A stretch of DNA of 4,005 nucleotides from a virus. Taxonomy: Duplodnaviria > Heunggongvirae > Uroviricota > Caudoviricetes. Under the pieces are notes generated by a model that did no database searches, had not been told where the DNA came from, and was given only the letters and a program-made list of their open reading frames with translations. Location: IMG/VR virus record IMGVR_UViG_2671180656_000018; one strand, 5' to 3'. A program made the position numbers and the translations under genes. This document shows, piece by piece, positions 1-2,151 of the stretch (its first letter is position 1; the number at the start of each line of letters is the position of its first letter).

Positions 1-337
1 CATGCAGGCAGTGGTCGGCCGGAATGATGTCGTTATACGTACAACTCTCTCCACCCGGAGTTACCGTGCTGCGGCGCGCCAGCTGTTTAATGCGCGGATC
101 CGGAGCATCGTAAGAATCCGGTAACGGAAGCCCTTCACCGTAGGCCATGCCGTTGGACTGTCCGGCAAGCACAACCACGTAGAACCAGTCCGGCTTAGAT
201 GAAGGGCCGACCTGTGGATCTCCTTCAATAGCCACCGCCTGCAAAGGCTGCCAGCCCTCTTTCAGTTTGTGTGTCAGCTTTTCCGCAAGGTCTGACGGCG
301 ACGCCGCCCTGACAACATCATAGTGTTTAAATGCCAT
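1..337 (-). CDS. NanS-p-like sialate O-acetylesterase (DUF1737-like N-domain plus SGNH/DUF303 esterase), 5' part only; C-terminus lies beyond the window edge
   Basis: Minus-strand ORF runs from ATG at 337..335 to the window edge with no stop (112 codons). SD GGGAGGA at plus 341-347, 3 nt upstream of the ATG. An in-frame TAA 20 codons upstream fixes the start. Translation begins MAFKHYDVVRAASPSDLAEKLTHKLKEGWQPLQAVAIEGDPQ and continues VVVLAGQSNGMAYGEG, a block-I GQSN motif typical of SGNH sialate esterases. Family assignment is from memory of prophage NanS-p proteins, not a search. Confidence 0.75.
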   Translation of the reverse strand, partial: MAFKHYDVVRAASPSDLAEKLTHKLKEGWQPLQAVAIEGDPQVGPSSKPDWFYVVVLAGQSNGMAYGEGLPLPDSYDAPDPRIKQLARRSTVTPGGESCTYNDIIPADHCLH

Positions 338-530
338 GAATCCTCCCGGCCGGGATAATATTGTGAGTAAAATGAGGAGCGGGCTGAAGTCCGGAAGTTA
401 CAGGACAATGGCAGAAGAGAGACAACAGCCCGCAATACGAAAAAGGCCGCGCTATTGCGCAGAGTGATTACTGTCGGATATTATTCGCCAGCTGAAATAT
501 TACTTCACGTTTTGTTGTTTATTCCTTGCC

Positions 531-559
531 GCCCGCGTCTCCCTGCGCGGGCTTTTTTT
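531..559 (+). terminator. Intrinsic terminator on the plus strand with no obvious upstream gene
   Basis: GC stem GCCCGCG (531-537) pairs with CGCGGGC (546-552), loop about 6-8 nt, followed by TTTTTTT (553-559). On the minus strand the same hairpin is followed by GGCAAGGAAU, so it is plus-strand specific. Confidence 0.55.
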
Positions 560-570
560 GTCCATAAGAA

Positions 571-590
571 AGCCCCTCCGGAGAGGGGCT
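571..590. other. GC-rich 8-bp-stem hairpin (inverted repeat) of unknown function
   Basis: AGCCCCTC (571-578), loop CGGA, GAGGGGCT (583-590): perfect 8-bp inverted repeat with 4-nt loop. It lies 11 nt downstream of the plus-strand terminator T-run. On the minus strand it is followed by UUCUU, a weak terminator-like tail. Confidence 0.5.
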
Positions 591-786
591 GGAGAGTGGC
601 GCTATGTGCCATTGCATGGTGCCGGGTGCCTCCCGGTGAATTCAGTACCAGCACCTGAATCCGCGATTATCCCATATACCTACTCGCTGATTGCCCCTCC
701 GCACAGGGGGATTCACCATGCCAGTTTCTTTTAACAAACTCCCCGCAAACCAGACAACAGTCAACCGCCTGAATTGTGAGACATTT

Positions 787-811
787 AAAAAAAGGCCCGC
801 AAAAGCGAGCC
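787..811 (-). terminator. Intrinsic terminator 15 nt downstream of the last tRNA on the minus strand
   Basis: Minus-strand RNA reads GGCUCGC-UUUU-GCGGGCC (7-bp stem including one G-U pair, plus 794-811) followed by U7 (plus A-run 787-793). On the plus strand the same stem has a C/A mismatch and no U-tail. Confidence 0.6.
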
Positions 812-825
812 AGGGAAAATAAGTG

Positions 826-902
826 TGGCGCGTTGTACTGGATTCGAACCAGTGACCGATTGCTTAGAAGGCAATTGCTCTGTCCGGCTGAGCTAACAAC
901 GC
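826..902 (-). tRNA. tRNA-Arg, anticodon UCU (reads AGA), canonical cloverleaf; resembles the argO/argN-type tRNAs of Stx phages
   Basis: Hand fold of the minus strand: acceptor GCGTTGT/ACAACGC, D-arm GCTC-AGCCGGACA-GAGC, anticodon stem ATTGC/GCAAT with loop CTTCTAA (anticodon TCT), variable CGGTC, T-arm ACTGG-TTCGAAT-CCAGT, discriminator G, encoded CCA at 828-826. All stems are perfectly paired. Confidence 0.85.
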
Positions 903-915
903 AGGATACAGATAA

Positions 916-992
916 TGGACCGCCTTCGGGGATCCGAACTCCGCGCAACCAGCTTCGAAAGCTGGCGCTCTTTCCTGATGAGCTAATGGCGG
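916..992 (-). tRNA. tRNA-Arg-like, anticodon UCG in my fold, with non-canonical features; possibly a weakened or pseudo-tRNA
   Basis: Hand fold: acceptor CCGCCAT/AAGGCGG with an A6/A67 mismatch, D-arm GCTC-ATCAGGAAA-GAGC, perfect anticodon stem CCAGC/GCTGG with loop TTTCGAA, T-arm CGGAG-TTCGGAT-CCCCG with an A52/C62 mismatch and G at position 58 where A is near-universal, discriminator T, encoded CCA at 918-916. Confidence 0.5.
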
Positions 993-999
993 TATGTGA

Positions 1000-1075
1000 T
1001 GGTGGCCCTTGCTGGATTTGAACCAGCGACCTGGTGATTATGAGTCGCTCGCTCTCACCACTGAGCTAAAGGGCT
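1000..1075 (-). tRNA. tRNA-Ile2-like (anticodon CAU, ileX/ileZ-type, presumably lysidine-modified to read AUA) with three A/C mismatches; possibly degenerate
   Basis: Hand fold: acceptor AGCCCTT/AAGGGCC with A1/C72 mismatch, D-arm GCTC-AGTGGTGA-GAGC, anticodon stem AGCGA/TCACC with mismatches at 27/43 and 29/41, loop CTCATAA (anticodon CAT), T-arm GCTGG-TTCAAAT-CCAGC perfect, discriminator A, encoded CCA at 1002-1000. Overall sequence resembles E. coli ileX as recalled from memory. Confidence 0.6.
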
Positions 1076-1103
1076 GGGTCAAAAAATAATAATCAGATGA
1101 AAA

Positions 1104-1817
1104 TCAATAATCAAGCCCTTGCCTGGATACATATCTGTCTGGCGGGAAGCCATAATAGCGGTGAAATACAGAAATAAAGTAGGACCAGCTTGAATAACCG
1201 CATTTTTCTGCTACAGCCTGTCCATATCCATGCCGGGAACATAACATATTGACAGCAACACGCATCCGCTCTTCCAGCAACAAGCGACTGAACATGTGCC
1301 CTTCATTTTTCAGTTTTATCTTTAACAAACTCTCACTCATATGCAGGCGTAACGCAATCGCACCAAGCGTCCAGCTTGCTGATATATCTGTCTGAATTAT
1401 CGCCCTGACTTTGGCACTTATACTGGATAAACATCCACTTAAAAATAATAATATCCGTTCATCTGATTCAAACAGCGACAGGCATGCCATCATAAGAAAC
1501 ATATCCGTGGTATCTCCGGAAAATCTCTGGCTGGTAATTAAAGCCTCAGCCAACGCAGGGTTGTTGGGTTCCAGTGACAGATAAAGCGGAACGTCAGTCA
1601 GATGAGTTCTTGTCAGCTTATGCTGAATTTCCAGATATTGACTTACTATGGAATGGTTTATATCGAAAATTTTAACTTTGCCATAATGCATAAGGAAAAG
1701 CGCCCTGATGCATTTGGTGGCCAGAACGACTGAGCCGGGCTTAAGTGACAACGTATCCTTTTCAAGAAAAATATTAATTGGGGAGCAAACCATGATAACT
1801 GAACAGACAACAACCAT
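1104..1817 (-). CDS. AraC/XylS-family transcriptional regulator (AppY/GadX-like), 237 aa
   Basis: Uninterrupted minus-strand ORF (ATG 1817..1815, TGA 1106..1104). C-terminal dual-HTH signature ...WTLGAIALRLHMSESLLKIKLKNEGHMFSRLLLEERMRVAVNMLCSRHGYGQAVAEKCGYSSWSYFISVFHRYYGFPPDRY is typical of AraC/XylS proteins. N-terminus MVVVCSVIMVCSPI and the C-terminal block resemble prophage-encoded AppY as recalled. AT-rich with rare codons (ATA, AGA, AGG seen in the first 60 codons). No clear SD before either candidate ATG (1817 or 1793). Confidence 0.8.
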   Translation of the reverse strand: MVVVCSVIMVCSPINIFLEKDTLSLKPGSVVLATKCIRALFLMHYGKVKIFDINHSIVSQYLEIQHKLTRTHLTDVPLYLSLEPNNPALAEALITSQRFSGDTTDMFLMMACLSLFESDERILLFLSGCLSSISAKVRAIIQTDISASWTLGAIALRLHMSESLLKIKLKNEGHMFSRLLLEERMRVAVNMLCSRHGYGQAVAEKCGYSSWSYFISVFHRYYGFPPDRYVSRQGLDY

Positions 1818-1911: not shown

Positions 1912-2151
1912 CTAACACCCACCAGCCGCCCATTTACCACAAATAAAAAAGCCTTCAGGACTGAAGGCGTCTGTAACAACCGAACTGATAGTCTGCCAGA
2001 CCCGCATAACCAGCTGGGTCAGTATTAACTGGCAGCGCTCGCGTGAAAGGTACGTATTCTGCGCAATCTCCCCGACCGTCGCCGGTTCGGTGACGCTTAA
2101 TTCATCAAACACAACTCTGGCGGTTTCTGTCATATCCTGCTGTTTCAGCAT
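1912..2151 (-). CDS. Hypothetical small protein (79 aa, possible HTH); coding status doubtful because an intrinsic terminator lies inside its 3' end
   Basis: ORF from the track, ATG 2151..2149, GC-normal composition. HTH-like segment PATVGEIAQNTYLSRERCQLILTQL. Only a distant GGG about 10 nt upstream as SD. The last roughly 19 codons (...AFSPEGFFICGKWAAGGC) are a read-through of the terminator hairpin and U-run at 1941-1968, so a terminated transcript would lack the stop codon. Confidence 0.3.
   Translation of the reverse strand: MLKQQDMTETARVVFDELSVTEPATVGEIAQNTYLSRERCQLILTQLVMRVWQTISSVVTDAFSPEGFFICGKWAAGGC
1941..1968 (-). terminator. Strong intrinsic terminator on the minus strand
   Basis: Minus-strand RNA: GCCUUCA-GUCC-UGAAGGC (perfect 7-bp stem, 4-nt loop; plus 1951-1968) followed by UUUUUUAUUU (plus A-run 1941-1950). 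Confidence 0.7.

Follow-up and report, generated by a model that had tools for sequence, protein, structure and literature searches.

Results

The 488 bp that separate the tRNA cluster from the nanS-p gene in the DNA analysed here (4,005 nucleotides in full length, called the window below) are very probably the unoccupied cargo slot of the Sp4 late operon together with the fixed regulatory elements that lie 3' of the slot. In the same reading the empty allele is a widespread haplotype which is likelier to be a deletion derivative than a virgin site, and which is not demonstrably derived from a slot once occupied by stx. The site at which Shiga toxin genes are found is then a general cargo slot, with a tRNA module on one side and two regulatory RNAs on the other, which makes it easier to understand how the many lambdoid prophages of pathogenic E. 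coli acquire, exchange and lose toxin genes.

Identity and gene order of the window

The late strand of the window is the minus strand. Many O157:H7 chromosomes are 100% identical to the window except for one 36-bp indel, and the segment from ECs_1084 to ECs_1088 of the Sakai prophage Sp4 (NC_002695.2) is 99% identical to it; judged by this identity, the locus is that of prophage Sp4 of E. coli O157:H7. The window differs from Sakai Sp4 in the length of the T-run at the junction described below (T7 in the window, T8 in Sp4), in one substitution in each of two tRNAs, and in a 36-bp in-frame deletion in nanS-p that lies outside 338-825. The genes and signals that surround the interval are the following, in late-strand order.

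3788-3408, minus strand: Q antiterminator
3262-2438, minus strand: CPBP/CAAX protease
2151-1912, minus strand: TrmB-like small ORF
1817-1104, minus strand: AraC-type regulator
1086..1114, minus strand: promoter-like site just 5' of the tRNA cluster, TTGATT, 17 nt, TATTAT (promoter scan)
1075-1000, minus strand: CAU tRNA, tRNA-Ile (ileZ) in RefSeq (ARAGORN)
992-916, minus strand: tRNA-Arg(UCG) (ARAGORN)
826..902, minus strand: tRNA-Arg(UCU), argO-type (ARAGORN; Rfam tRNA, 70.1 bits; annotated argO1 in Sakai)
1..337, minus strand: 5' end of nanS-p, a SASA-family sialate O-acetylesterase, ECs_1088 (RefSeq; translation compared with the 933W, Sp11 and Sp15 paralogues)

At the place equivalent to 1086..1114, phage 933W carries the annotation “pT; putative tRNA promoter”. 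The interval is bordered on its left by the argO-type tRNA, with which the ileZ-argN-argO cluster ends, and on its right by the ATG of nanS-p at 337-335 (-), from which the ORF continues beyond the window. With the tRNA ending at 826, the extent of 338-825 given by an earlier sequence-only reading of this DNA is exact, and so is its statement that the interval has no plausible late-strand ORF: the ORFs that overlap it are of 32-53 aa, apart from one of 93 aa that extends across the tRNA genes, and all short minus-strand ORFs that touch the interval sit on RNA genes or terminators. The same reading had found “only terminators and hairpins” in the interval. The hairpins are indeed enriched, with six terminator-like sites in window 1-1200 compared to 1.3 +/- 1.1 in shuffled sequences (terminator scan), but the word “only” has to be given up, since the interval carries two known convergent genes for Hfq-bound sRNAs, EcOnc05 and EcOnc08/21. 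The elements of the interval are listed here in late-strand order.

788..811, minus strand: intrinsic terminator 3' of the tRNA cluster, stem-loop 811-794 and T7 run 793-787 (terminator scan)
784..787, minus strand: slot junction, late-strand TAAA (BLAST breakpoints 788/783 against 933W, locus L001 and all Stx2 loci)
560..750, minus strand: STnc100-family sRNA gene, EcOnc05 of Sakai Sp4 (Rfam RF02076; Hfq-CRAC peak; northern probe)
485..559, plus strand: 3' part of the EcOnc08/21 RNA, with a U/G-rich single-stranded stretch, terminator hairpin 531-552 and T7 553-559 (terminator scan; fold)
394-557, plus strand: convergent EcOnc08/EcOnc21 RNA, span of the Hfq peaks (Table S2 peaks mapped)
394..479, plus strand: EcOnc21 Hfq peak, upstream part of the same ~271-nt RNA as EcOnc08 (Table S2 peak mapped exactly)
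441..462, minus strand: terminator-like hairpin 462-447 with T-run, 5' of nanS-p, kept in 933W (terminator scan; fold)
338..446, minus strand: nanS-p 5' leader with Shine-Dalgarno GGAGG at 346-342 (alignment)

The fold of the terminator at 788..811 has -13.8 kcal/mol (z = -4.27), and the nanS-p leader is the most conserved part of the interval.

The junction that takes the place of the stx cassette

The gene order of Stx phages had been given correctly in the sequence-only reading: 933W has argO, a terminator, stxA2, stxB2, a 486-bp spacer and nanS-p, and Sakai Sp5 has the same. When aligned to the flanks of stx2 in 933W and Sp5, the interval is homologous to both sides of the cassette, and this also holds for other Stx2 phages. 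To the left, window 788-903 matches positions 2295-2409 of the 933W locus (L004), that is argO and its terminator, with 94.8% identity over 116 nt, and this homology extends to L001, which is an Stx2a phage from a different lineage, and to all Stx2 loci examined. The alignment pairs the terminator at 788..811 with 2386-2409 of 933W, annotated “terminator upstream of the stx genes”, and the two are the same element. To the right, window 783-300 matches the stxB-to-nanS-p spacer of 933W with 71-96% identity. The lower value comes from window 783-613 (71%), for which the 933W block begins 41 nt past the stxB2 stop codon, while window 462-300 is 95.7% identical to 933W 4065-4227, which contains the nanS-p leader and start. 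Over window 338-783 the right flank is ~85% identical to Stx2a phages, and from the sRNA core onward it is 90.6% identical to the Stx1 prophage Sp15.

The breakpoint could be placed at 784-787, since in the BLAST alignments the left flank stops at 788 and the right flank begins at 783. The same 788/783 break is found in all other Stx2 loci examined. In 933W and L001 a cassette of 1,335 bp lies between the two flanks, made up of the stx2 promoter, stxA2, stxB2 and the 41 nt after the stxB stop, and in its place the window has the four bases TAAA (787-784), so that the terminator T-run continues directly into TAAAT at the right-hand edge. The same right-hand boundary is found in Sp15, an Stx1 prophage that lacks tRNAs: its stx1B is followed by 43 nt and then by the boundary motif of the window, which places stx1 directly upstream of AAATGTTAAAT...TCTCAATTCAG. 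With homologous flanks and no stx, 338-825 corresponds to the stx-bearing slot of Stx phages in a toxin-free form, as had been proposed.

A remnant of stx within the window was looked for and rejected, as a permissive blastn search with the cassette gave hits at chance level (E >= 0.66) and tblastn with Stx2A and Stx2B gave no match. The idea that short direct repeats might mark the junction also failed: the only word common to the two cassette edges is ATCTG (5 nt), which was reached in 1624 of 2000 shuffles, and the stx cassette is therefore flanked by no meaningful direct repeats.

Contents of the slot in related phages

For a survey of the slot we took the first 120 IMG/VR contigs with the exact argO 3' end among the matches listed, of which 117 could be classified by what follows the tRNA. 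The sample is rich in O157-like genomes, and the class counts below, all among the matches listed, are not population frequencies.

Slot empty, window-like: 43/117 loci
Slot empty, sRNA unit duplicated in tandem: 12/117 loci
TerB-like gene, as ECs_2190 of Sakai Sp11, in some loci with two further small ORFs: 21/117 loci
stx2AB: 17/117 loci
Short remnants, 43 to 73 nt: 11/117 loci
Lysis cassette directly 3' of the tRNA module, without nanS-p: 9/117 loci
108-aa ORF: 4/117 loci

An empty slot is thus the most common class, with 55 of the 117 loci among the matches listed. The tRNA-to-nanS-p architecture had been taken as linked to stx, and this view does not survive the survey, because among the matches listed the slot is more often empty (55/117) or filled with a TerB-like gene (21/117) than filled with stx2 (17/117). 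The site is a general cargo (“moron”) slot and is not specific for stx.

The empty-site haplotype turned out to be widespread. When 5,426 complete E. coli genomes were searched with a 79-nt query spanning the junction (coverage >= 80%), the empty junction was found in 937 of them, non-O157 strains included. In 56 loci examined, among the matches listed, the junction reads T6-9 followed by AAATGTC, and the length of the T-run is all that varies.

Origin of the empty allele

Every occupied context has the same two edges. RTATCYGCG stands right after the terminator T-run upstream of stx2, of TerB-type cargo and of the 70/69-aa ORFs, and also upstream of the lysis cassettes that lie directly 3' of the tRNA module. 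At the other end, (G/T)AAAT(G/T)TTAAAT precedes TCACAATTCAG in every occupied context (stx1, TerB-type, remnants), diverged in 933W to AAGTGTAAT. The empty allele is without both edges (RTATCYGCG and GAAATKT), its T-run passing straight into TAAAT, and when it is compared with the TerB-type loci the left homology (late-strand positions 2-38) and the right one (from 35/36 onward) have 3-4 T residues in common. Two of the remnant types, represented by loci L019 and L007, still have the last ~9 codons of a small ECs_5731-like ORF, which identifies them as deletion products. Since the edges are missing in the empty allele, the homologies overlap in the T-run, and the remnants are products of deletion, we mildly favour a history in which an occupied slot lost its contents through a deletion between T-runs, giving an empty allele that later spread. 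Whether the empty site is ancestral or derived is read here from short edge motifs, by parsimony. We also looked for a parent allele that still has cargo and whose right flank is nearly that of the window, but among the matches listed the right flank of no cargo-bearing locus exceeds 86% identity to the window.

A good deal less probable, but worth weighing, is that the empty junction is ancestral and was never occupied, and that the T-run later took up stx, the TerB-like genes and other cargos in separate insertions. Empty slots are the most common class (55/117, among the matches listed), an overlap of 3-4 T residues with the TerB-type loci is the pattern expected from insertion into a T-run with a short target duplication, and the insertion of morons downstream of PR' is an established concept (Juhala et al. 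2000, as cited in PMC4104026). The edges speak against it: unrelated cargos share RTATCYGCG and (G/T)AAAT(G/T)TTAAAT, which independent insertions would not each bring along, and the empty allele lacks both. The remnants moreover form a graded series from 43 to 73 nt, which points to decay from occupied states.

The sequence-only reading had left the choice between an ancestral empty site and loss of the toxin cassette. What stands of this is the junction, now placed within 4 nt; what does not stand is the loss of stx in particular, as no stx remnant was found. It is improbable that the prophage of the window once had stxAB and lost exactly that cassette, with 784-787 as the scar. In all Stx2 loci the 1,335-bp stx2 cassette does begin and end within 4 nt of the breakpoint, deletions in the slot do happen (L019 and L007 are examples), the empty allele is without the RTATCYGCG and GAAATKT edges that all occupied contexts have kept, and phage Nil3 is a stx-less phage with a Q module of the 933W type. 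But neither blastn nor tblastn revealed a stx remnant in the window, and one junction, T-run length aside, is common to 56 loci and 937 genomes, which fits a single old haplotype and not recurrent toxin loss. Further, over the 446 nt of right flank that lie between the junction and the nanS-p ATG, the Stx2 loci agree with the window at just 54-86% of positions, the remnants that survive in relatives are of TerB-type cargo and not of stx, and Nil3, with its window-type tRNA trailer, could equally well have arisen when its tRNA cluster recombined with that of an Sp4-like prophage. These findings do not identify stx as the lost cargo, and nothing demonstrates that stx was ever present in the prophage of the window.

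The late-strand RNA EcOnc05

The late-strand gene 3' of the slot, at 750-560 (-), matches the Rfam family STnc100 (RF02076) in full length (model positions 1-206) with 138 bits against a gathering score of 47 (E = 1.6e-31), and it has its own terminator at 590-571 with the U-tail at 570-563 (-). It is EcOnc05 of Sakai, for which an Hfq-CRAC peak and a northern band of ~222 nt have been reported on the late strand (Tree et al. 2014, PMC4104026, Table S2). The Hfq peak maps exactly to window 581-689 (-), and the northern probe is identical to the plus strand of the window at 658-692. EcOnc05 is a homologue of EcOnc27/sRNA103, which adjoins stx2B downstream, and Rfam finds an STnc100 with 207.7 bits at the same place after stx2B in 933W.

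When 17 distinct STnc100 variants, including that of the window, were folded together with RNAalifold, the consensus had 35 pairs, seven of which show compensatory changes on both sides, and there is at most one broken cell per pair. The consensus fold consists of a long-range closing stem, three internal hairpins and the terminator, and two internal segments are hypervariable.

From the published size of ~222 nt and the end of the U-tail at 563, arithmetic alone implies a 5' end of EcOnc05 near 777-785, which is the slot junction; by the same arithmetic the 5' end of EcOnc27 (~235/247 nt) would lie at the homologous boundary in 933W. As a separate observation, a candidate sRNA promoter consisting of TTGYCT, 17 nt and TTAAAA, judged by eye to be conserved across the variants, lies just 5' of GCATGG. 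This candidate would yield an RNA of ~157 nt, while the published sizes, ~222 nt for EcOnc05 and ~235/247 nt in the case of EcOnc27, agree instead with a start at the slot boundary.

The convergent plus-strand RNA EcOnc08/EcOnc21

Opposite to the late strand, Hfq peaks have been described for EcOnc08 and EcOnc21, both with ~271 nt on northerns (Tree et al. 2014, PMC4104026). The EcOnc08 peak maps exactly to window 485-557 (+), and the northern probe shared by EcOnc08/21/42 is exactly complementary to the plus strand at 451-485. The element at 485..559 folds with z = -2.99, and its U/G-rich stretch, GUUUUGUUGUUUAUU, lies at 509-523. The terminator of this RNA at 531-559 adjoins the minus-strand sRNA terminator at 590-563, and the two genes are convergent. 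With the end at 559, the northern size of ~271 nt would put the 5' end near 288, and an RNA starting there would be antisense to the nanS-p leader, to the Shine-Dalgarno sequence at 346-342 and to the start codon. A promoter-like site at 455-484 (+), with TTGCGC, 18 nt and TATTAT, aligns with the promoters of AsxR and AgvB, and its -35-like TTGCGC is part of the complement of the late-strand hairpin at 441..462. If this putative promoter is active, a shorter EcOnc08/21 product is possible.

The position of EcOnc08/21 is that of known anti-sRNAs: in 933W and in two further loci (L039 and L111) AsxR or AgvB abuts the 3' end of STnc100, with AsxR (RF02703) opposite STnc100 in 933W and AgvB (RF02702) in the two others, and in the window EcOnc08/21 has that place. 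Identity of the plus-strand element with AsxR or AgvB was considered and rejected. Neither Rfam family has a match in the window at E <= 1, the conserved ~42-nt 3' region of AsxR/AgvB/EcOnc03 (AGTATCTCATGC..GCCCGAACCCAYTCGGGC) is absent from the window, and the 3' region and terminator stem found there are unrelated. The transcripts of the AsxR/AgvB/EcOnc03 family are moreover 51-60 nt long, whereas ~271 nt has been published for EcOnc08/21. A motif search showed that the plus-strand RNA of the window is a separate type, common to 44 other loci among the matches listed, and it is the commonest type at the AsxR/AgvB position (44 of the 88 related loci examined, among the matches listed).

That the hairpins of 338-825 are a passive spacer which terminates transcription, the RNA-family match reflecting conserved terminators alone, could appeal to the four terminator-like hairpins within 488 bp and to the fact that EcOnc05 and EcOnc08/21 are without demonstrated function, but is scarcely credible when the 138-bit STnc100 match spans model positions 1-206 and so reaches beyond the terminator, when the closing stem and two internal hairpins are kept by compensatory changes among the 17 variants while two internal regions are hypervariable, when Hfq crosslinking peaks and discrete northern bands are in print for exactly these sequences (PMC4104026), and when EDL933 has eleven STnc100 copies for which RNA-seq read counts are given (PMC5331693).

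Discussion

A working model of the slot

Taken together, the elements described above very probably have the following layout along the late strand. The tRNA module (pT, ileZ, argN, argO) ends in the intrinsic terminator at 811-788 and is followed by the slot at 784-787, which is empty in the window and holds stx2AB, stx1AB, a TerB-like gene or other cargo in relatives. Next comes EcOnc05 as a structured, Hfq-binding STnc100-family sRNA of ~220 nt with its own terminator at 590-563, towards which the opposite-strand RNA EcOnc08/21 runs, to end at its terminator at 531-559. A weak terminator at 462-441 then precedes the leader and ribosome-binding site of nanS-p. Late transcripts that have been modified by Q may pass these terminators and reach nanS-p and the lysis genes, and EcOnc08/21 could act either in cis, by antisense pairing with the start of nanS-p, or as a trans-acting sRNA or sponge in the manner of AsxR and AgvB.

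Cargo is probably swapped or lost by homologous recombination between conserved arms, namely the tRNA module on one side and the sRNA/nanS-p region on the other, and the edges of the slot (terminator T-run and RTATCYGCG to the left, GAAATKTTAAAT to the right) may serve as fixed arms for such cassette exchange. Phage Nil3 (AM051322), a stx-negative phage from an O157:H7 cattle isolate, appears to be a case in point. From roi through Q to the tRNA terminator it is 99.25% identical to 933W, with a Q, ninG and roi module like that of 933W and unlike that of Sp4; in contrast, its tRNA trailer, empty junction and right flank are all window-type, the junction and right flank being 99.8% identical to the window. 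This structure would result if a 933W-like phage and an Sp4-like prophage had recombined by a single crossover within their near-identical tRNA clusters, and Nil3 would then be a natural recombinant across the tRNA module. If the slot edges do serve as exchange arms, co-resident prophages could readily take up the empty allele and so lose stx, as may have happened in Nil3.

More tentatively still, EcOnc08/21 may represent, next to AsxR and AgvB, a third and so far uncharacterised class of prophage RNA in that position, one that would gate nanS-p in cis and could act in trans through its U/G-rich stretch. We regard this idea, like the separate one of slot edges used as exchange arms, as speculative and rather unlikely to hold.

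Comparison with known systems

The arrangement in Sp4 is already known from Tree et al. 2014 (Mol Cell 55:199, PMC4104026), who described convergent sRNA genes at the site downstream of PR' where morons are inserted, gave Sp5 as an example (stx2, then EcOnc27 and EcOnc02/AsxR), and reported a similar organisation in Sp3, Sp4, Sp9, Sp10, Sp11, Sp15 and Sp17. Relative to the Sakai version used there, NC_002695.2 is shifted by ~142 bp at Sp5 and by 0 at Sp4, as judged from the AsxR position and the probe sequences. The Sp4 moron site of that study is the locus of the window, with three Hfq peaks and both northern probes matching exactly. The window adds no new biology over the published Sp4, and its use is that of a clean reference for the unoccupied allele and the exact junction.

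STnc100 has been placed downstream of stx2B and equated in part with EcOnc27/sRNA103 (PMC12711010, PMC12370729), and sequence variation in the STnc100/EcOnc27 region just 3' of stx2 has been linked to clinical outcome (PMC12711010). The stx2 locus of 933W/Sp5 shares with the window the order of tRNA module, terminator, STnc100-family sRNA, convergent small RNA and nanS-p. It differs in the body of the sRNA, which is just 71% identical and has another hypervariable region, and in the convergent RNA, which is AsxR (54 nt) in 933W/Sp5 and in the window an RNA of ~271 nt with another 3' region and terminator.

In the slot of the Sakai Sp11 type, the same tRNA terminator, downstream STnc100-family sRNA and nanS-p are found, with cargo at the same junction. 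This cargo consists of the TciA/TerB-like ECs_2190 and the 55-aa membrane protein ECs_5731, and Sp11 is without argN. Structural relatives of STnc100 have also been reported from EPEC E2348/69, where PasD1 and PasD2 lie directly 5' of a prophage sialate esterase gene (bioRxiv 10.64898/2026.05.13.724894). Set beside the window by their description, they share this position, and are reported to have another seed region and another set of targets.

The tRNA module and its 3' edge

In phages that lack nanS-p (loci L088 and L069 and seven similar loci), comparison of the first ~1.5 kb after argO showed a lysis cassette immediately behind the tRNA module, its terminator and the CATATCCGCG tail. The products of this cassette resemble, by sequence, a pair of holin-like membrane proteins and a peptidase-type endolysin of 125 aa. 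The recurrence of the same module, terminator and CATATCCGCG tail immediately before the lysis cassette of phages devoid of nanS-p suggests that the tRNA module is a mobile unit in itself, with its 3' edge fixed.

Within the module of the window, the Arg(UCG) tRNA and the CAU (ileZ-type) tRNA each carry one substitution relative to Sakai Sp4 (window 933 and 1035). With the Rfam tRNA model the Arg(UCG) tRNA scored 44.1 bits, against ~55 bits for most homologues in the other loci, and the CAU tRNA 61.0 bits, against ~72.5 bits; for the latter cmscan flagged non-standard pairs in both the acceptor and the anticodon stem.

Variation between argO and nanS-p

Otherwise identical empty alleles differ in the length of the T-run at the slot junction (window 787-793), which is T7 in the window and T8 in Sakai.

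T-run lengths at the slot junction among empty alleles
T6: 8 loci
T7: 18 loci
T8: 27 loci, and one variant junction
T9: 2 loci

The sRNA unit also varies, as it is present in two tandem copies between argO and nanS-p in 12 loci (including L013, L021 and L084), with ~468 bp between the STnc100 cores and ~975 nt from the tRNA to the nanS-p start. One example is:

L015 6983-7660, tandem sRNA unit

At another locus, L082, the STnc100-family sRNA is broken inside its first hairpin, ~125 nt downstream of argO, by CTGTCTCTTGATCAGATCT, which resembles the inside end of IS50/Tn5; the insertion could be of natural or engineered origin.

A partial pseudo “hypothetical protein” is annotated by RefSeq/PGAP in strain Z1835 (L003 9642-9767), corresponding to window 606-731 (+). 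It overlaps the STnc100-family sRNA in antisense orientation, and the annotation is probably a spurious call.

The nanS-p allele and the neighbouring genes

Compared with Sakai Sp4, the nanS-p gene of the window is missing 36 bp (12 codons) at 243/244, around codons 32-44, such that L stands in place of YGGPVAITPYTLM in the N-terminal DUF1737-like part. Among the matches listed, the best 8 of 738 records of complete E. coli genomes, the otherwise identical O157 genomes all keep these 36 bp; since the matches cross the site as two pieces, the deletion allele was seen in none of the 8.

Just beyond nanS-p we found pchA and one copy of IS629, and then an inverted lysis cassette; the prophage is therefore rearranged downstream of nanS-p. 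Two genes within the window are annotated as follows:

1104-1817 (-), AraC-type regulator, 237 aa in Z1835 and 195 aa (ECs_1087) in Sakai
1912-2151 (-), TrmB-like small ORF, frameshifted in Z1835 according to RefSeq

In NC_002695.2, the current RefSeq version of the Sakai genome, the coordinates were shifted by ~+142 bp at Sp5 against those of the sRNA tables of Tree et al. (2014), with no shift at Sp4, so the published EcOnc coordinates need checking before they are transferred to this version.
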